Source of the DNA: a virus
Lineage: Duplodnaviria > Heunggongvirae > Uroviricota > Caudoviricetes
Length of the DNA stretch: 8,307 nucleotides
Strand: one strand, 5' to 3'
IMG/VR virus record: IMGVR_UViG_2740892234_000024
The notes under the pieces are model-generated. The model was not told the origin of the DNA, ran no database searches, and saw only the letters and a list, made by a program, of their open reading frames with translations. The translations under genes were made by a program, and so were the position numbers. The first letter of the stretch is position 1; each line of letters opens with the position of its first letter. This document shows, in pieces, positions 1 to 8,307 of the stretch.

Positions 1-579
1 TTAGCCGTTAAGTTTAACTGCCAGACCTGCGACATATTCCCCTTGATAACGAGCAATAGACAGTTCTTCCTGGCTTGGCTGGCGTGAGCCGTCACCGCCT
101 GCGATGGTGGTTGCGCCGTACGGCGTACCGCCGCGAACCTGTGAAACGTCAAATAATTCCTGCGCTGCGTAGCCAATGGGGACAATTACCATGCCGTGAT
201 GCGCAAGGGTCGTCCAGGTTGAAGTAATAGTTTGTTCCTGACCGCCGCCAGTACCGGTGGAACTAAAGACGCTCGCCAGTTTTCCGTATAGTGCGCCGGA
301 AGCCCACAGGCCGCCCGTCTGGTCGAGGAAGGTACGCATTTGACCGGACATGTTGCCAAAGCGGGTAGGTGTACCAAAAATAATGGCGTCGTAATCGGCC
401 AGTTCTTGCGGGGTTGCAACCGGTGCAGTTTGCGTTTTACCGCCTGCTTTTTCAAATAATTGCGGCGGCATGGTTTCCGGTACACGCTTAACGACAACTT
501 CTGCGCCATCGACTTTGCTTGCACCCTCAGCGACTGCGCGTGCCATCGTTTCAACATGTCTAAGGATATGGTTTATCAT
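1..579 (-). CDS. wrbA: NAD(P)H:quinone oxidoreductase WrbA, 3-prime portion with a phage-derived start; the native N-terminus is replaced by about 9 different codons (MINHILRHV, then [10 protein letters not shown]... onward matches WrbA as recalled)
   Basis: 192-aa ORF; from [38 protein letters not shown] to the C-terminal AVKLNG it matches E. coli WrbA as I recall it. TAA stop at 1-3. ATG at 579-577 overlaps the int stop (ATGA). Confidence 0.85.
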
Positions 580-580
580 T
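540..580. other. Approximate prophage/chromosome junction (int-proximal att core) inside wrbA
   Basis: WrbA-like translation begins around the codons for ETMA (about nt 540-556); upstream codons diverge from native WrbA and run straight into the int stop. Exact core not determinable without the uninterrupted wrbA allele. Confidence 0.4.
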
Positions 581-1886
581 TTGAAAAATATAATTTTATT
601 TCATCCTCCTGGTCACTTTGGGGCACGTCTGGGGCACGGGCATTAAGGACATTATTCAACATGGCAACTTGAGTCACGCTGCACTCAGGCATCCATGCAC
701 CATAAACATTGTAGACCATGCTGGCGCTGGAGTGCCCCATCTGTGATGCAATAAATGTCGGGTTTGCTCCGGAAGATAAAGCCCAGCACGCATAGGTATG
801 GCGTGACTGATACGCTTTACGGGATCGGATACCCGCTCTTTTTATTGCTGAATCCCATGTCGCTCCGATGGAGCTTACCGCGTAGTTAATACCCGCCTTG
901 TGATTCTTGCGAACGATTTGCGGACAGAAAACAAAAGTGCACTCGTGCAAAATTGTTCTTCCGTACTCGCGTAATTGAACAGTGATCTGATGCTGCCTGC
1001 TAAGACGAGTAAGCATCGCCTGGTTTTTAAGTGCTTCAATTGCTGGTGCCAGAAGATGTATAACCCGGTTAGTGCCTGCGTCGGTCTTTGGTAGCGTAAA
1101 ATCACCTATTTTTGTAAAATTTCGTCGCACTGTTATCGTGCCAGCTTTCAGGTCGATATCCTCCCATGCAAGTGCGGCAATTTCACCGTGTCGCATCCCT
1201 GTAAAAACAGCCACTGTCCAGAGGTTTTTGGTCTGTTGATGATGGCAGGCATCAATGAGACGGCTAAACTCATCTCTGGTCAGTGGATCCGGCACTGGTT
1301 TTGATTTCCTCAGCGGTGTTATTGAATTAAACGGGTTTTTCTCCAGATACCCGTTTTCGGCGGCAAAGCTGAACATTCCGGCTGTTGTTGTCATGTAATA
1401 GTTCACTGTGGGTACGGTTCTTCCTTTTCGGGACGTGCTGGTTTTCCTGCTTCCCTTTTCCCCGGTCAGTAAATCTTTCCTGATAAACAGCAGATCTTCT
1501 TTTGTAATCGATGACGCCAGCCTGCCAGGACCAAGCCTCGGTAGCATATTTTTCATCACTGATTGATAACGATTTAAGGCGTTACTACCGATTTCCATTG
1601 CTTTCAGAGTAAGCCATTTCTGTGCCAGTTCACCGACGGTGATATCTTTTTTTACCAGGCCAAATAGCTTCAGGTTAGGTGAGTCAGGGAATCGATCGGC
1701 ATAATCAAACGTTCCTGTTCTGATTGCAAAGCAGACCGAAGCCCTTAACTCACCAGCGATCTTTCTGTTTTTCGGTGTATCGGGCACGCGAAGATTTTCG
1801 CGCACTCGTTTACCCCTGTACTTAAACGTTATTCGGAGTTTTCCTCCGTGATTTTCAACGCCGGCTGGATAGGCTGAATTCGCCAT
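576..1886 (-). CDS. int: Phage tyrosine integrase (site-specific recombinase)
   Basis: Long ORF next to the att junction with tyrosine-recombinase-type C-terminal region (...[15 protein letters not shown]..., ...[27 protein letters not shown]...). The track start at 1910 is a GTG; the ATG at 1886-1884 (MANSAYPAG...) is preceded by AGGAGG and is preferred. Confidence 0.85.
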
Positions 1887-1938
1887 TGTTCCTCCTGCGT
1901 CCAAGAGCACGCTCAGGTTATACTCTTATGGACAAGAA

Positions 1939-2238
1939 TTAAACATCCTGAGATGGTAAGGGTTGGTTTTTGATCCAAGTGTTGATGGTAGGAAGATGAT
2001 AGAGACATTCGCTGTTTTTCTTTGGCGTTCCGTCGGGGGCGATTTGTTTATATTCTCTGCCGTTCATCCACGCACTGTCCCTGGCGCGTAATATTGTTCC
2101 TTTTCTCAGGCCTGTTACAGCCATTAAAAGCTCCAGTGTTACCCATTCATTCGCATTTATCTGTACAACAGGTGTGATGACTGGCTGAATGCCATGGTTA
2201 TGTTGGTTTACTAACTCGCGCATAAGTTGCCTCTGCAT
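1939..2238 (-). CDS. xis: Excisionase-like DNA-binding protein
   Basis: Small ORF immediately upstream of int; the segment EWVTLELLMAVTGLRKGTILRAR resembles the DNA-binding region of excisionase-family proteins. An internal ATG at 2223 has a better RBS (GAGG) than the ATG at 2238. Confidence 0.6.
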   Translation of the reverse strand: MQRQLMRELVNQHNHGIQPVITPVVQINANEWVTLELLMAVTGLRKGTILRARDSAWMNGREYKQIAPDGTPKKNSECLYHLPTINTWIKNQPLPSQDV

Positions 2239-2244
2239 GTGTAA

Positions 2245-2265
2245 GAAAAAACCGCCATCAGGCGG
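2245..2265 (-). terminator. Intrinsic-terminator-like hairpin for the leftward transcript
   Basis: Perfect 5-bp GC stem (ccgcc 2252-2256 / ggcgg 2261-2265, loop atca); on the minus strand it is followed by TTTTTT (plus 2246-2251). Sits 44 nt downstream of the stop at 2309. Confidence 0.35.
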
Positions 2266-2308
2266 CTTGGTGTTCTTTCAGTTCTTCAATTCGAATATTG
2301 GTTACGTC

Positions 2309-2620
2309 TTATTCGATGCGCACTCCTGGTATTTCGCCTTTTGATATTGCTAAGTCATAAATTTGCGCGGCACTATACCCATCTCGCATCCATGAATCTA
2401 AGGCGCGAACAGCCTCGCTACGCTTTTTATCTTCTCTCTCATTTTTGATATCAACGAGGACATCAACGCAATTAAGGCAAATGTGGATTTTGTCTTTACA
2501 TTCGATCATGGCGGCTTTGCCATGATTTCCGCCACACAGTGAGCATAAATCTTCAGGGTCTGGCTGGTATTTCTGTAACGTTAGAGGGTTGAATGTTGAA
2601 CAGGCCATAATCATCTCCAT
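2309..2620 (-). CDS. Hypothetical Cys-rich protein (putative zinc ribbon, CxxC...CxxC)
   Basis: ORF with CSLCGG ... CLNCV cysteine pairs. Three in-frame ATGs at 2620, 2614 and 2608; the 2608 start (MACSTF...) has the best-spaced GGAG. Confidence 0.55.
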   Translation of the reverse strand: MEMIMACSTFNPLTLQKYQPDPEDLCSLCGGNHGKAAMIECKDKIHICLNCVDVLVDIKNEREDKKRSEAVRALDSWMRDGYSAAQIYDLAISKGEIPGVRIE

Positions 2621-2627
2621 AAAACAA

Positions 2628-2645
2628 AACTCGCCGTAGCGAGTT
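2628..2645 (-). terminator. Terminator-like hairpin between the 94-aa and 103-aa genes
   Basis: 7-bp stem (aactcgc / gcgagtt, loop cgta) followed on the minus strand by TTGTTTT. Confidence 0.3.
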
Positions 2646-2679
2646 CAGATAAAAGAAATCCCCGCGAGTGCGAGGATTG

Positions 2680-2964
2680 TTATTCATTGCCGATATTCAC
2701 CTTTATCGCGAACACCTTTACCGGTTTATCTCCGAAGTGTGTATGTGTGATTGTCTTGATTTTATATCCGTCATACGGGACGTTAATTCTGCGGCTGGAG
2801 TCGTCGCGCTTCGGATATCCCTTTGTGATAATCAGGCGGTCATACTCCCGGAACATAATTCGCTTATTCCAGTAGTCATTACACAGGCGATACTCTTCTG
2901 TTTTCTCTCCGCGAATCATGGCATCGAAGTATTCACCTTTGACTGCAAGTTGCAGGTTAGCCAC
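2680..2964 (-). CDS. Small ASCH/DUF3850-like protein (PUA-like fold, recalled from family pattern)
   Basis: 94-aa ORF; GTG start at 2964 preceded by AGGAGG with 6-nt spacer. N-terminal pattern VKGEYFDAMIRGEKTEEYRL resembles ASCH-type domains. Confidence 0.55.
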   Translation of the reverse strand: MANLQLAVKGEYFDAMIRGEKTEEYRLCNDYWNKRIMFREYDRLIITKGYPKRDDSSRRINVPYDGYKIKTITHTHFGDKPVKVFAIKVNIGNE

Positions 2965-3241
2965 GACCTTCCTCCTTTGGCTTGTGAATTTGTATCGTCA
3001 TGCCGCTTTGAGTGGTGACTACAACGACAGAACCAGGCTGAAGGCTGTTAAGATTGAATGCTTCGTAAAATGAATCCAAGGCCAGTGCTTTTTTATTCTT
3101 TCGGTTCCACCAACGCCATCCCTTGCTACAGGCTACACTGACAATCCACTGTCCACTCCTATAAGCCAAATAAAACCAGATGAGCAAAACCTGAAGGAAT
3201 GCTATCCAGTCAATAATCGTATATTTCGCGAAGGAGTCCAT
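2957..3241 (-). CDS. Small membrane protein (one predicted transmembrane helix)
   Basis: ORF with hydrophobic stretch IIDWIAFLQVLLIWFYLAY; ATG at 3241-3239 overlaps the upstream stop (TGATG), AGGAGG upstream. The track start at 3244 is a TTG. Confidence 0.5.
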   Translation of the reverse strand: MDSFAKYTIIDWIAFLQVLLIWFYLAYRSGQWIVSVACSKGWRWWNRKNKKALALDSFYEAFNLNSLQPGSVVVVTTQSGMTIQIHKPKEEGRG

Positions 3242-3852
3242 CAATTAACCTCCTGCGGCGGTTCTGGTAGCGGCATCCAGTGGGTTACTCCATGCCATAT
3301 ACCAGTTAAGGTTTCAAACCTTGGCTCTCTGCCTTTCTGTGTCTTGGCATATTCATTCCTTGTATATACGCATTGTCTAACTGCATATTCATTCCATCCA
3401 ATAACTGTTTGTCTAATTTCTGGCATTCGCTCACTACAGCTTATCCAACCATCCGGAATTACCGGAGAGTTGCCAGCCTCATACGCCACACGCATCCAGT
3501 GCATAAGCGTTTCAGTGCTCACACATCCGCAATCAACGTCTATTTTTTCTTTTTGTTCTGACAACCATTCCTGGAATGACAGCTTGGCAGTCTGGCTTGC
3601 TGGCTCAATTCGTGGCAGGCCGATATATAGCGGTACATTTCCCGGATCCATCGAATTGTCGGGACAAATAAACGTGTTACAACCATATTTAACGAGCTCA
3701 ATTCCCGCGGTGTCGATAGTGGCGAATGGTTCAGCGGTCAATGCAGTCAACGCAATTTCATAAGCACGGCGCTCAATATTGTCCCGCACCCCCAGACTGC
3801 TGATATGTTCTTTAATTTCTTTAATTAGCTCTTTGTCGGTAATAGTGGTCAT
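3241..3852 (-). CDS. DUF551/Eaa-like phage protein
   Basis: 203-aa ORF ending in ...GIWHGVTHWMPLPEPPQEVN, the tail I associate with DUF551-type proteins of lambdoid early-left regions. Confidence 0.65.
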   Translation of the reverse strand: MTTITDKELIKEIKEHISSLGVRDNIERRAYEIALTALTAEPFATIDTAGIELVKYGCNTFICPDNSMDPGNVPLYIGLPRIEPASQTAKLSFQEWLSEQKEKIDVDCGCVSTETLMHWMRVAYEAGNSPVIPDGWISCSERMPEIRQTVIGWNEYAVRQCVYTRNEYAKTQKGREPRFETLTGIWHGVTHWMPLPEPPQEVN

Positions 3853-3854
3853 AG

Positions 3855-4046
3855 CTATTTCACCTTAATCTCAACATTTCGCAGCTTTAGCTCTACTGGC
3901 ATGTCTGACTTTCCTGTTAATGCTAATGCGAGATTTTCTGGAGTAATGAGAGCAGTTATTGTTTTCCCCATCGCCAGACGAATAATCATTCGTATCTCGC
4001 GATCGTCACATGCTCCCGGTCGAACAATTGAGATTTGTCCGTTCAT
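3855..4046 (-). CDS. Hypothetical 63-aa protein
   Basis: ORF whose ATG follows the conserved junction sequence GGAGAGTGAGATG that supplies its RBS; no family recognised. Confidence 0.5.
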   Translation of the reverse strand: MNGQISIVRPGACDDREIRMIIRLAMGKTITALITPENLALALTGKSDMPVELKLRNVEIKVK

Positions 4047-4047
4047 C

Positions 4048-4071
4048 TCACTCTCCTTTGATGCGAATGCC
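4048..4071. repeat. 24-bp gene-junction repeat tcactctcctttgatgcgaatgcc, copy 1 (identical copy at 5965-5988; degenerate relative near 4543-4568)
   Basis: Exact 24-bp identity read directly. On the minus strand it encodes the tail GIRIKGE plus TGA and contains the GGAGAG RBS for the next gene. Confidence 0.9.
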
Positions 4072-4539
4072 AGCGGTACTCATTCTCCTGATTTCCCAGA
4101 GCACACGAGGAATACCACCGTTTCCGACCGGATCGCGTTTACTCCGCAGGGCGACGCTTGATTCCGCCCAGCTTTTTCTTGGAGGAAGCTCTTTCACACG
4201 AACAAAACCAGCTGCGCGAAGAGATGCTCCTGATTCATCTGCCTGGGTGTACGTAATACAACGTTGATAACCCATAGCTTTTGCTGCCCGCCAGACAGCA
4301 CCATAAAGCGCGCTGTTAGCGTTGCGTTCTCCTGTGGTACATGTGCGATTTACTTCAAGCGTTAATCCATCGTCCAAATGTCGTGCAACAGGTCGACCAG
4401 CTGTCGCCACACCTATCAATTCTCCGGCATTATTTCTCAGACCAATGCTGAATTTATGCCCCACTGGTGGTTTATTGTGTCGGTGGTGCTGTGCGATAAA
4501 TTCCTGCGCCGCTTTCAGCGTTATAGGTGAAATGACCAT
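4048..4539 (-). CDS. Conserved phage protein of unknown function (possibly GNAT-like fold) carrying an Ea22-type C-terminal tail (...GIRIKGE)
   Basis: About 163 aa; ATG at 4539 overlaps the upstream stop (the GTG at 4542 is the alternative). C-terminus matches the tail of the Ea22-like gene at 5965-6467. The fold guess is from loose motif resemblance only. Confidence 0.6.
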   Translation of the reverse strand: MVISPITLKAAQEFIAQHHRHNKPPVGHKFSIGLRNNAGELIGVATAGRPVARHLDDGLTLEVNRTCTTGERNANSALYGAVWRAAKAMGYQRCITYTQADESGASLRAAGFVRVKELPPRKSWAESSVALRSKRDPVGNGGIPRVLWEIRRMSTAGIRIKGE

Positions 4540-5132
4540 CACTCAGACTCCTCCTTGATGCCAGCGGCGCTTGCTGATTCTTCATATGCGCGTTTAGCAG
4601 CGTTAAGGATTGCTGCCAGTGGCGTATAGCCGCCATCCATTCGGATTGTGTTGTGGATGCCAGCCATTGTGTCGCGCAATTTGCTGTGGCTAGCAGACAG
4701 TTCTGCTATGCGCTTACTTCCATCCGCGATTACTCCCTCGTAATACTCGCGTTGCTCGTTGAGTTTTGATTTTGCTTCCTCAAGCTCAACACGCAGTTTC
4801 CCTACCGTTAGCGCAATATCCTCGTTCTCCTGGTCGCGGCGTTTGATGTATTGCTGGTTTCTTTCCAGCTCATCCAGCAGCGCCAAGACGGTAGCCGGAT
4901 TGGCTGCGGCGATGAATTCAGCATTGGCCTGCTGTTCCATTTGGAAATCTTCATCGAAACCGCTTTCAGGATGCGCTCCTTCAATTCTGCAAATGGGAAT
5001 ATATCCAGCAGCCTCGCGATGAATTAGTGCATCATCACCATCAAATCGGCTCTCTCCATATTCGAGAGACCACTCACCACACGTTGCTTTTTCTGCCTTT
5101 TCACGCAGTACCTGATAGTCAATCTTGCTCAC
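4539..5132 (-). CDS. Ea22-like family protein, paralog 1
   Basis: Coiled-coil core LLDELERNQQYIKRRDQENEDIALTVGKLRVELEEAKSKLNEQREYYEGVIADGSKRIAEL matches lambda Ea22 as recalled. Preferred start is GTG at 5132 (VSKIDYQVLRE...) with AGGAGG 6 nt upstream and GTGA overlap with the upstream stop; the ATG at 5165 is probably an over-extension. Confidence 0.7.
   Translation of the reverse strand: MSKIDYQVLREKAEKATCGEWSLEYGESRFDGDDALIHREAAGYIPICRIEGAHPESGFDEDFQMEQQANAEFIAAANPATVLALLDELERNQQYIKRRDQENEDIALTVGKLRVELEEAKSKLNEQREYYEGVIADGSKRIAELSASHSKLRDTMAGIHNTIRMDGGYTPLAAILNAAKRAYEESASAAGIKEESE
4778..4878. repeat. About 100-bp repeat, copy A (in Ea22-like paralog 1); copy B is at 6161-6262
   Basis: Direct comparison shows about 7 mismatches in 100 bp; encodes the shared coiled-coil segment. 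Copy B runs into the N-gap at 6263. Confidence 0.9.
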
Positions 5133-5963
5133 TGGTTTCCTCCTTTGCGAATCTGTTCCGCCCATTCTTCAAGGGATTTCTCCGCATATTCACCAGACAG
5201 GCCATCAATCGGATGCGCTTCATTAGCCAACTCTTCTTTCGCTGACAAAATCATGCGTGTAACGTCGAAAACTTCACGCAAAGACTTATTGATAAATCCG
5301 TGATTGAAAGCAGCAGCAAGACGGCTTGCGGTATAGTTAATACCCTCGTTGCGAGCCGCCGCACGAATTTCAGCCAGGAAAGCGTCGGTGGCTGGGGTTT
5401 CCGTGAAGTTGTCCTCCCAACCGTAGTACTCCTGACGACAGAAGTTATTAAATTCCTTCTCCGACTGTTTAAGCTCCGCATTCTCTGCCGCCAGCACCGA
5501 AAACTTCTCGTGTGCCAACTTAACAGCCGCATCAGCCTGCTTAATTNNNNNNNNNNCCGGGTTCTTTAATGTGCAAGCGAGGCTCACCATCTTTTGGCTC
5601 AGGCCACTGGCGCTCCATGTTGATCTTCAATTTATCTTCCATAGCAGCGGTAATTTCAGCATCGCTGATGCCAGCACGGCGCTGTGCATCCCACAACAGA
5701 AACTGCATATCAGCCCACTCGCTAAGATCGTCTGGTTCGGCTGCGGCTTCCAGTGCCTCTTTTGAGAGATGTTTCAGCGGACCAATGGGGCCAACGCAGC
5801 CAAATGTGGAGTCAGACCATTTGGCATGCTCGTGGCGAATCTGTTCGCGTTCCAGTGATGCCAGTGCAATTCGTGCCAGTTCCATTTGTTCGCCACGAGT
5901 AAGTCCGTTATCAAGCGGATTTTTAATGAATAATTTGATACGTTCTTTGGTTATAGCGCTCAT
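5129..5963 (-). CDS. MazG-like NTP pyrophosphohydrolase domain protein (DUF550-type dATP/dGTP pyrophosphohydrolase-like), interrupted by the N-gap at 5547-5556
   Basis: N-terminal part (5557-5963) has the all-alpha MazG-type acidic pattern (EALEAAAE ... EWADMQFLLWDAQRRAGISDAEITAAMEDKLKINMERQW). The C-terminal part (5129-5546) continues after the gap in a shifted frame. Start ATG at 5963 follows GGAGAGTGATATG. Confidence 0.55.
5547..5556. other. Assembly gap (10 N) inside the MazG-like gene
   Basis: Run of N; reading frames on the two sides differ, so the true gap length is unknown. Confidence 0.95.
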
Positions 5964-5964
5964 A

Positions 5965-5988
5965 TCACTCTCCTTTGATGCGAATGCC
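5965..5988. repeat. 24-bp gene-junction repeat, copy 2
   Basis: Identical to 4048-4071. Confidence 0.9.
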
Positions 5989-6467
5989 TGTTGCAATGCT
6001 GTTTATGATGCTGTCAGTGCATGGGGTAGAAAGCTGGGCATCTCCAGCAATTCTCATGACCTCAACATCTGCATATCGAATACCGAGGTGTATCAGACCG
6101 GCTATACCTGACTTAAGCCGAGCATTTTCCATAAACAGATCCTTTGCACGCTGTTTTTCTGCCTCAAGCTCAACGCGCAACTTCCCTACCGTTAACGCAA
6201 TATCCTCGTTCTCTTGGTCGCGGCGTTTGATGTATTGCTGGTTTCTTTCCCGTTCATCCAGCNNNNNNNNNNTTGGTCTTCGGCCAGCTCCGCTAAATTA
6301 GCCTCCAGTTCGGCTATGCGTTCGTTTAATGCATCTCGTTCATCCAGTAGCGCCAGCACAACCTGAGGTGTGACTTTCATACGAAATGCCAGCAATTTTT
6401 GAGGCGTTGCTACTGTTTCAATTGCTACTGCCGCCTCACGCAGTGCCTGAGAGTTAATTTCGCTCAC
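5965..6467 (-). CDS. Ea22-like family protein, paralog 2, interrupted by the N-gap at 6263-6272
   Basis: N-terminus MSEINSQALREAA..., coiled-coil segment and C-terminal ...GIRIKGE all match lambda Ea22 as recalled. ATG at 6467 overlaps the TraR-like stop (ATGA). Confidence 0.7.
6161..6262. repeat. About 100-bp repeat, copy B (in Ea22-like paralog 2)
   Basis: See copy A at 4778-4878. Confidence 0.9.
6263..6272. other. Assembly gap (10 N) inside Ea22-like paralog 2
   Basis: Run of N placed at the edge of a roughly 100-bp repeat shared with paralog 1. Confidence 0.95.
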
Positions 6468-6685
6468 TTCGAACCTCTCTGTTTACTGATAAGCTCCAGA
6501 TCCTCCTGGCAACTTGCACAAGTCCGACAACCCTGAACGGCCAGGCGTCTTCGTTCATCTATCGGATCGCCACACTCACAACAATGAGTGGCAGATATAG
6601 CCTGGTGGTTCAGGCGGCGCATTTTTATTGCTGTGTTGCGCTGTAATTCTTCAATTTCTGATGCTGAATCAATGATGTCTGCCAT
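6464..6685 (-). CDS. TraR/DksA-family C4 zinc-finger protein
   Basis: 73-aa ORF with CCECGDPIDERRRLAVQGCRTCASCQ (CxxC-x17-CxxC), the DksA/TraR-type zinc finger. Confidence 0.75.
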   Translation of the reverse strand: MADIIDSASEIEELQRNTAIKMRRLNHQAISATHCCECGDPIDERRRLAVQGCRTCASCQEDLELISKQRGSK

Positions 6686-6728
6686 CTTTCATTAATCCCT
6701 GAATTGTTGGTTAATACGCTTGAGGGTG

Positions 6729-6738
6729 NNNNNNNNNN
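6729..6738. other. Assembly gap (10 N) between the two copies of the TraR-like 5-prime region
   Basis: Run of N flanked by near-identical 188-bp sequences. Confidence 0.95.
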
Positions 6739-6884
6739 ACCAGGCGTCTTCGTTCATCTATGGGATCGCCACACTCACAACAATGAGTGGCGGATATAGT
6801 CTGGTAGTTCAGACGACGCATTTTTATTGCTGTATTGCGCTGTAATTCTTCAATTTCTGATGCTGAATCAATGATGTCCGCCAT
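6739..6884 (-). pseudogene. Partial second copy of the TraR-like gene (N-terminal 48 codons, cut off by the gap)
   Basis: ATG at 6884-6882 opens a frame encoding MADIIDSASEIEELQRNTAIKMRRLN... that runs into the N-run. Confidence 0.5.
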
Positions 6885-6934
6885 CTTTCATTAATCCCTG
6901 AATTGTTGGTTAATACGCTTGAGGGTGAATGCGA

Positions 6935-6960
6935 ATAATAAAAAAGGAGCCTGTAGCTCC
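6935..6960 (-). terminator. Intrinsic terminator for the leftward transcript
   Basis: 5-bp stem (ggagc 6946-6950 / gctcc 6956-6960, loop ctgta) followed on the minus strand by TTTTTTATTAT; lies 23 nt downstream of the stop at 6983. Confidence 0.45.
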
Positions 6961-6982
6961 CTGATGATTTTGCTTTTCATGT

Positions 6983-7198
6983 TCACCGTTCCTTAAAGAC
7001 GCCGTTTAACATGCCGATCGCCAGGCTTAAATGAGTCGGTGTGAATCCCATCAGCGTTACCGTTTCGCGGTGCTTCTTCAGTACGCTACGGCAAATGTCA
7101 TCGACGTTTTTATCCGGAAACTGCTGTCTGGCTTTTTTGATTTCAGAATTAGCCTGACGGGCAATGCTGCGAAGGGCGTTATTATGTTCTATTGTCAT
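6983..7198 (-). CDS. Hypothetical 71-aa protein translationally coupled to the upstream 250-aa gene
   Basis: ATG at 7198 (MTIEHNNALRSIARQ...) preceded by GAGG, 8 nt downstream of the 250-aa gene stop at 7206. The track extension to 7336 overlaps that gene and is not preferred. Confidence 0.6.
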   Translation of the reverse strand: MTIEHNNALRSIARQANSEIKKARQQFPDKNVDDICRSVLKKHRETVTLMGFTPTHLSLAIGMLNGVFKER

Positions 7199-7205
7199 AT
7201 TGGCC

Positions 7206-7958
7206 TCACACTTCGAATGCCAGTTGAGGGGTAAAGACGTCCCGTTCAGCATTGTAATTAAGTGAACTGGCACTGTTGAATGATTCAATGCGTTCCACAA
7301 GAACTTGCGTACGGGTTTCTTTACTTGCGGGAGCATATGGCGAACCTACCCAGGATTTGTCGATGCCTATATTTCTTGCGACGTTCGTGCTGTCTGCAGA
7401 CGAAAGCGGTACATGAGTAAAAATGTCTTTATTTAACATCCGTAACCCATGAATCTTGGTGATTGGGTAGCCGTACTGATCTACAACATGACGTATAAGA
7501 TCGCGTAGTTTAGCCCGACACGCTCTCGGTCGTTTTGCATCGCATTCCCCCATCGAGCCGATGCAGACGCGGGGAAACTCATGGCACAGACGAATAAATC
7601 GCTCATCTGGTTCGTTCATGTGCCACACCGGAGCACCAATAAATTTACCGTGAGGCCATGCCGCAATCAGGGCGTCATTCTCTTCACTGGTTCCGCCGAT
7701 AACATCCGGGATAACCGCGAATGAGAAACGAGGGTGATTACCCCAGCGTTCAACAAATCTGTAATATTTATTCCAGTCTACGGCCTTGTTTTTTGTCCAG
7801 AATGTGAATGCACCATTATCAAGAGCAAATGATTGGGTGACTTCGGAAGCCAGATCAATCTGAGCTGGATTAGCAAAACTGATGAATGCGTGTCTGCCTT
7901 TCCAGGCTTTCAACGCACAGGTATCGGGAGTTATTGGACCACCGTGAAAATGAATCAT
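7206..7958 (-). CDS. 250-aa protein with tRNA-guanine-transglycosylase-like motifs; candidate DpdA-like DNA 7-deazaguanine transglycosylase (hypothesis)
   Basis: Clean ORF with ATG overlapping the upstream stop (ATGA). FALDNGAF resembles the TGT LTDSGGF motif, and SADSTNVARNIG resembles TGT FDCVMPTRNARNG with identical D-x5-R-N spacing. Motifs matched by eye against recalled E. coli Tgt. Confidence 0.7.
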   Translation of the reverse strand: MIHFHGGPITPDTCALKAWKGRHAFISFANPAQIDLASEVTQSFALDNGAFTFWTKNKAVDWNKYYRFVERWGNHPRFSFAVIPDVIGGTSEENDALIAAWPHGKFIGAPVWHMNEPDERFIRLCHEFPRVCIGSMGECDAKRPRACRAKLRDLIRHVVDQYGYPITKIHGLRMLNKDIFTHVPLSSADSTNVARNIGIDKSWVGSPYAPASKETRTQVLVERIESFNSASSLNYNAERDVFTPQLAFEV

Positions 7959-8119
7959 ACACTCTCCCGTTTATTATTTATCTCCTCAGCCAGCCGCTGT
8001 GCTTTCAGGGGATTTCGGGTAACAGAAAGGCCGGGAAATACCCAGCCTCGCTTTGTAACGGAGTAGACGAAAGTGATCGCGCCTACCCGGATATTATCGT
8101 GAGGATGCTTCATCGCCAT
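7955..8119 (-). CDS. Small protein in the lambda orf60a position (immediately downstream of exo)
   Basis: 54-aa ORF ([54 protein letters not shown]); the second Met at 8113 gives ATGA overlap with the exo stop; its own stop overlaps the next ATG (ATGA). Confidence 0.55.
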
Positions 8120-8307
8120 TGCTCCCCAAATACAAAACCAATTTCAGCCAGTGCCTCGTCCATTTTTTCGATGAACTCCGGCACCATCTCGTCAAAACTC
8201 GCCATGTAATTTTCATCCCGCTCAACCACGACATAATGCAGGCCTTCACGCTTCATTCGTGGGTCATAGTTGGCAAAGTACCAGGCATCTTTTCGCGTCA
8301 CCCACAT
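8110..8307 (-). CDS. exo: Lambda-type exonuclease (Red-alpha), 3-prime end only; gene continues beyond the window
   Basis: Translation [65 protein letters not shown] matches the C-terminal 65 residues of lambda Exo as recalled, with a few substitutions. Confidence 0.85.

Follow-up and report, generated by a model that had tools for sequence, protein, structure and literature searches.

The window examined here, a stretch of 8,307 nucleotides taken at its full length, belongs to a lambdoid prophage of Escherichia coli at wrbA, with the early-left (pL) operon on the minus strand, and it carries the start of a traR/orf73 gene twice in tandem. Comparison of its pieces with finished genomes indicates that the tandem copy is very probably an artefact of draft assembly, in which short contigs of two closely related prophage versions were lined up with spacers of 10 N between them, and that there is probably no real biological duplication here. 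The preliminary description had favoured the scaffolding of contig ends from near-identical prophages without merging, and this reading is supported, since the second and fourth pieces of the window, and likewise the first and third, are separately collinear elsewhere. The comparison also supports a more specific form of it, namely that two paralogous (or allelic) early-left regions are interleaved, and not that a single overlap was left unmerged.

Composition of the window

Three N-runs divide the window into four pieces, c1 (1-5546), c2, c3 and c4 (6739-8307), whose features are collected in table 1. All three runs measure exactly 10 N, which suggests a fixed spacer and not a measured gap. 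Ten N is the minimum gap in several assemblers and archives, and NCBI counts N-runs of 10 or more as gaps; the Velvet manual reportedly has gaps with an estimate below 10 bp written out as 10 N. A literature search for the 10-N gap convention returned nothing usable. As had been pointed out earlier, the N-runs all fall within coding sequence, interrupting ORFs at three of three, and two of them abut repeats: the direct repeat D2 (4770-4878 and 6154-6262, 109 nt, 92%), which is shared by Ea22-like segments, extends up to the second N-run, and the third is flanked by D1.

Regarding the wider context, prophages integrated at wrbA in O157:H7-type genomes match the first 2,965 nt of the window at 99.1% identity, and to the right of approximately position 2965 the window is a different mosaic. 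Among the complete E. coli genomes, none covers more than 59% of the whole window in one place. As there is thus no single finished reference for the scaffold, the comparison was carried out piece by piece. The main reference loci were L001 (NZ_CP027544.1, strain 2013C-3264), L004 (NZ_CP025840.1) and L005 (strain 95NR1), together with two further assemblies, L010 and L015, which were found by a search for contigs encoding an XF1762-family protein.

Two other repeats were noted in the window. A 32-nt direct repeat (4040-4071 and 5957-5988, 94%) lies at two gene junctions, where both upstream ORFs end in GIRIKGE and the start of the next gene follows; it looks like a short conserved linker at the module boundaries of mosaic lambdoid phages. 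Within a DUF551-like ORF, a 34-nt unit at 3347-3380 shares 74% identity with its neighbour at 3383-3416, also of 34 nt, a similarity that may be a chance match.

Table 1. Features of the window, with coordinates counted from its first nucleotide
Feature	Position	Strand	Remarks
wrbA ORF	1-579	-	overlaps the integrase ORF by 4 nt
Integrase ORF	576-1910		adjoins wrbA, with a 4-nt overlap
Ea22-like ORF, 3' part at the end of c1	5129-5546	-	5' part at 6273-6467 in c3
N-run	5547-5556	.	10-N spacer between c1 and the misplaced c2
Piece c2	5557-6262	-	allele-A contig, 706 nt; 5' part of a dATP/dGTP pyrophosphohydrolase-like gene and an Ea22-like fragment
N-run	6263-6272	.	10-N spacer between the misplaced c2 and c3
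Piece c3	6273-6728	-	allele-B contig, 456 nt; 5' end of an Ea22-like gene and complete traR; true left neighbour is c1
Shared block in c3	6349-6539	-	191 nt, corresponding to the c2-c4 gap in L001; traR codons 49-73 and Ea22-like 5' end
Complete 73-aa TraR/DksA-type zinc-finger gene, allele B	6464-6685	-	orthologue of lambda orf73
Unit 1	6540-6728	-	right end of c3, allele B; traR/orf73 codons 1-48, part of codon 49 and 43 nt upstream
N-run	6729-6738	.	scaffold spacer joining c3 and c4
Unit 2	6739-6927	-	left end of c4, allele A; 5' fragment of 48 codons and 2 nt, with the same 43 nt upstream

The repeated unit

The two units had been described by eye as about 96% identical with a period of 199; aligned in full, 6541-6728 and 6740-6927 agree with this, differing at 8 of 188 nt (95.7% identity) at a spacing of 199. 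When the first base after the N-run is included (6540-6728 against 6739-6927), there are nine mismatches in 189 nt (95.2%). As a control for chance, 20,000 random ungapped pairs of 188 nt were drawn from the window; their best identity was 37.8%, so the similarity of the units is not due to chance. The extent attributed to the second unit, 48 codons and 43 bp upstream, is also correct: on the minus strand its ATG lies at 6884, 48 full codons and 2 nt bring it to 6739, and the upstream 43 nt occupy 6885-6927.

All eight differences within the 188-nt units are coding, six of them synonymous and two non-synonymous (H27Y and A29T), and the ninth, at 6540/6739, alters codon 49 (A/V). At each of the nine positions, the variant base is also present in finished genomes. 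Unit 2 has 189/189 identity to L001 7204-7392, where it forms part of an intact, single 73-aa gene, and unit 1 matches the intact gene region of L004 at 188/189. As both units correspond to intact genes elsewhere, they represent two functional alleles and not a gene with a decaying copy.

Collinearity of c2 with c4

The pieces c2 and c4 follow one another in L001. The 706 nt of c2 match L001 6307-7012 at 706/706 (100%), and c4 matches L001 7204-8772 at 1567/1569 (99.87%). In that genome 191 nt separate the two, and the place holds one annotated TraR/DksA gene, flanked by an Ea22-like pseudogene and a 71-aa gene. Joining c2, window positions 6349-6539 and c4 reproduces L001 6307-8772 with three mismatches in 2,466 nt and yields a single intact ORF of 73 aa, whose translation equals the L001 protein. 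The block 6349-6539, which in the window is found in c3, presumably belongs to both alleles and was assembled a single time.

On its left side, c2 stops within 2 nt of the point where a 59-nt repeat ends, one that recurs in c1 at 3416-3474 (96.6% in L001), and this is another boundary of the branch-point type. This end (5557-5786, minus strand) holds only the 5' 76 codons of a gene with a dATP/dGTP pyrophosphohydrolase domain; the full gene is the L001 CDS 6045-6536, the remainder of which is not in the window. In c4, a 250-aa ORF at 7206-7958 (minus strand) corresponds to a 'hypothetical protein' of L001, WP_000581110.1. The c4 segment at about 7181-7955 is missing from the prophages of L002, L003 and L004, which marks it as a variable module; it is flanked by the 71-aa gene on one side and by the DUF1317/exo genes on the other.

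Collinearity of c1 with c3

The piece c3 is only 97% identical to the L001 locus, and the differences are unevenly spread. Divergence covers the initial 79 nt, being strong in the first 64 and reduced to two SNPs from there to 6351, and this part is an Ea22-like variant other than that of L001. The following 188 nt (6352-6539) are identical to L001 7016-7203, after which nine SNPs occur in 6540-6680 and the last 48 nt are again identical. The left end of c3 is wholly divergent from the end of c2 at the homologous position. As a contiguous sequence, c3 is found at 98.0% identity in many complete genomes, for instance in L004, where the 71-aa gene follows; 98.0% is also the best value obtained, and full-length c3 at 100% was not found in complete genomes.

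The right part of c1 has its best full-length match in strain 95NR1 (99.9%). There, c1 ends at L005 7747 and positions 1-196 of c3 begin at 7765, leaving 17 nt between them. The same spacing of 17 nt occurs in L010 and L015, and in the complete genome L004 at 95-98% identity. When the end of c1 and the start of c3 are bridged with these 17 nt of L005, one intact Ea22-like ORF of 209 aa results, which is the L005 CDS 7330-7959 (WP_016241159.1) save for about six differences in the first eight residues. Since c1 and c3 stand 17 nt apart in four independent assemblies and their joining restores the 209-aa ORF, c2 has been wrongly inserted between them, and the split ORFs at the first two N-runs are artefacts. 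The search with the XF1762-family protein revealed no contig carrying c1, c3 and c4 together. The XF1762-family module occurs in many different phage contexts.

Three Ea22-like coding segments were observed within 2 kb of the window, at 4539-5165, at 5129-5546 with 6273-6467, and at 5965-6262. Two adjacent Ea22-like genes (209 and 197-208 aa) are present in L005, L010 and L015, so that their occurrence in finished genomes shows the pair to be real. The third segment, situated in c2, belongs with c4 and the L001-like sequence.

The preliminary description had warned that gene order across the N-runs should not be taken for granted, and the misplacement of c2 confirms the warning. It can be carried further than was proposed, as all three N-joins are unreliable.

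Contig ends at allele-discriminating bases

The right end of c2 coincides exactly with a base at which c3 and L001 differ (L001 7012), and c4 starts exactly on an allele-discriminating base (L001 7204). The end of c3 lies 48 nt past the last distinguishing base, and these 48 nt form the only exact terminal overlap in the window. Ends that coincide with allele-discriminating bases are the behaviour of branch points in an assembly graph and not that of a biological junction. The pattern is not uniform, with c3 overhanging by 48 nt and c2 and c4 stopping exactly on SNPs; the overhang of c3 would fit a de Bruijn graph with k = 49, to which the SNP ends of c2 and c4 do not conform.

The traR/orf73 gene

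The complete ORF in c3 matches the Pfam family PF01258 (zf-dskA_traR) with 35.8 bits, above the cut-off of 24.9 (E 7.7e-09). Its 73-aa product has 100% identity with the phage 434 protein and 98.6% with that of lambda (J02459 30395-30613), and the translation contains D3 and D6, C35/C36-x-C38 and C53/C56-x-x-C59, with both Cys pairs of a C4 zinc finger. An Ea22-like gene (PF13935, Ead_Ea22) lies immediately downstream, and the same order of TraR gene and Ea22-like gene is annotated in L001-L004. The gene is the orthologue of lambda orf73 and as such already well known. Lambda Orf73 is a homologue of TraR, the mimic of ppGpp/DksA, and like TraR it has a direct effect on host transcription (PMC9239242). 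It has been shown to bind RNA polymerase and to inhibit rRNA promoters, as well as ribosomal-protein promoters, raising phage yield 3- to 4-fold, and it is inactivated by D3A and D6A substitutions (PMC9239242). Judging from the 98.6% identity, the 73-aa protein of the window would likewise be expected to bind RNA polymerase and inhibit rRNA promoters.

The second copy (6739-6884) does not qualify as a TraR/DksA gene in its own right. It scores 18.1 bits against PF01258, below 24.9, and covers positions 4-18 of the 36 in the profile; it comprises codons 1-48 only, lacks Cys53, Cys56 and Cys59, that is, half of the zinc finger, and its ORF is interrupted by the N-run. The most fitting interpretation is that a further full allele begins here and was cut off by the contig end.

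Proposed explanation

In the model that we propose, the source E. coli, with a lambdoid prophage at wrbA, would hold two versions of the prophage early-left region, that is, the exo-xis region with the Ea22-like gene, orf73/traR and the 71-aa gene. The versions would have identical stretches in common and differ elsewhere by SNPs or by divergent modules, so that a short-read assembler would have broken the region into small contigs at branch points. A scaffolder would then have set these contigs in a single line with fixed spacers of 10 N.

Two paths can be drawn through the pieces. Path A would consist of 5557-6262 (c2), 6349-6539 (the block now present only inside c3) and 6739-8307 (c4). Path B, the prophage at wrbA, would run from c1 through about 17 missing nt into c3 and then into sequence like that of c4 from 6928 onwards; the candidate sequence is 1-5546 + GACTCAATCGCTTTCTG + 6273-6728 + 6928-8307. 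There is one intact 73-aa gene in each path. The linear order c1-c2-c3-c4 would place the allele-B end of c3 next to the allele-A head of c4, two sequences that cover the same 189 homologous positions. The remaining codons of allele A, 49-73, would fall within the shared block; as this block was assembled a single time, in c3, unit 2 stops after 48 codons. Under the artefact model, no read should contain ...CTTGAGGGTG followed, a few bases on, by ACCAGGCGTC.

Both paths are collinear with independent finished genomes, the shared block matches L001 exactly over 188 nt, and contig ends fall on discriminating bases; the layout itself would be the product of an assembler and a scaffolder. Fixed-length N spacers, ends at repeat or variant boundaries, and collinearity with finished genomes once the redundancy is removed are what a scaffold join of redundant contig ends should display, and all of these are found here.

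The two versions are most likely two prophages in one chromosome; by analogy with NZ_CP027544.1, the second of these may be situated beside dsdC/torI. Several copies of the region in one E. coli genome are common, with matches at 4,959 places in 3,379 genomes, with up to six per genome, and this frequency supplies the paralogues that such a mis-assembly requires. Among the finished genomes none with both paths was found: path A was detected in 2013C-3264 and, of path B, the c1 part in 95NR1. The presence of two prophages in one genome is therefore what we infer and not what we observed. In the same way, since no finished genome holds the whole window or c3 at 100%, the layout of the source strain is a reconstruction.

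Alternative explanations

The tandem arrangement could be read as real, that is, as a partial tandem duplication produced by unequal recombination between two lambdoid prophages, with the 10 N hiding a short junction. In the operon of such a prophage, the complete orf73 of allele B would be directly preceded by a 5' fragment of allele A, together with the 43 nt upstream of that fragment. A TraR-like N-terminal peptide of 48 residues, having the D3/D6 segment and only half of the zinc finger, could then be expressed and might compete with or modulate Orf73. Both units do stand in one submitted scaffold at a spacing of 199, and lambdoid phages are highly mosaic, the window itself giving evidence of module shuffling. 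A genuine duplication should, however, present a sequenced junction between the copies and collinear flanks in one molecule; here the junction is 10 N, and the flanks are split between c2 with c4 and c1 with c3. The former pair is collinear in a finished genome with one gene between its members and the latter in four others, so the order of the pieces is demonstrably wrong at the neighbouring gaps, and the ends of c2 and c4 on allele-discriminating bases also speak against a recombination joint. A direct junction query (25+25 nt) gave no match in 5,426 complete E. coli genomes; each side is too short to seed a match without the contiguous junction, so the query detects only a duplication whose copies abut directly at exactly these breakpoints. 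The unit is single-copy in all five of the fetched loci that carry the gene. The true duplication that the preliminary description had kept as its alternative is thus without support, with changes that are mostly synonymous, an intact full-length allele matching each copy and the direct junction absent from the complete E. coli genomes. We consider a recombinational duplication highly improbable, and it is hardly to be expected that a second orf73 allele is truly present, as a 5' fragment, ahead of the complete gene in the prophage.

The mis-scaffolding of two versions, which we favour, could also have drawn its alleles from two strains or sub-populations, as in a mixed culture, a contamination or a metagenome bin. 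The window alone cannot tell paralogues from a mixture, and the failure to find both paths in one finished genome would suit a mixture as well. Nevertheless, several lambdoid prophages with this region are common within single E. coli genomes, in up to six places, which makes the paralogue reading the simpler one, and the window has no other sign of mixing, with wrbA and the integrase on a single clean contig that is 99.1% identical to O157 genomes. A mixture of strains is accordingly very unlikely. A plain unmerged overlap of contig ends from one locus, with the nine differences due to sequencing or consensus errors, would account for an ungapped alignment whose last 48 nt match exactly. The differences, however, are not random, six of the eight coding ones being synonymous; all nine variant bases recur in finished genomes (189/189 for unit 2 in L001, 188/189 for unit 1 in L004), and at the homologous position the left end of c3 and the end of c2 are entirely different. 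An overlap of this kind has next to no chance of being correct, and an origin of the differences in sequencing error was rejected on the recurrence of every variant base.

Significance and comparison with known systems

The value of the result is practical. Annotated as it stands, the scaffold would yield a "TraR/DksA" pseudogene and a pyrophosphohydrolase gene, both truncated, along with two Ea22-like genes in split form, and a duplication or a novel prophage gene order might be reported from it. The order of genes over the three N-runs is unfit for prophage comparison. As the underlying gene is a well-characterised orthologue of lambda orf73, nothing new is added on its biology.

The complete copy shares with lambda Orf73 the length of 73 aa, the PF01258 match, D3 and D6, and the position within the pL operon, with an Ea22-like gene directly downstream, and no notable difference separates the two. 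With genuine tandem gene duplications of phages the locus has in common two similar head-to-tail units at a short spacing; it is unlike them in the 10-N junction, in a divergence of 4-5% that is mostly synonymous, and in the separate intact alleles that the copies match. The likeness is to the mis-scaffolding of multiple lambdoid prophages in short-read E. coli assemblies, with which it shares contigs of 706 and 456 nt whose bounds are repeats found also in paralogous prophage regions, N-runs of fixed length and redundant allelic ends set side by side.
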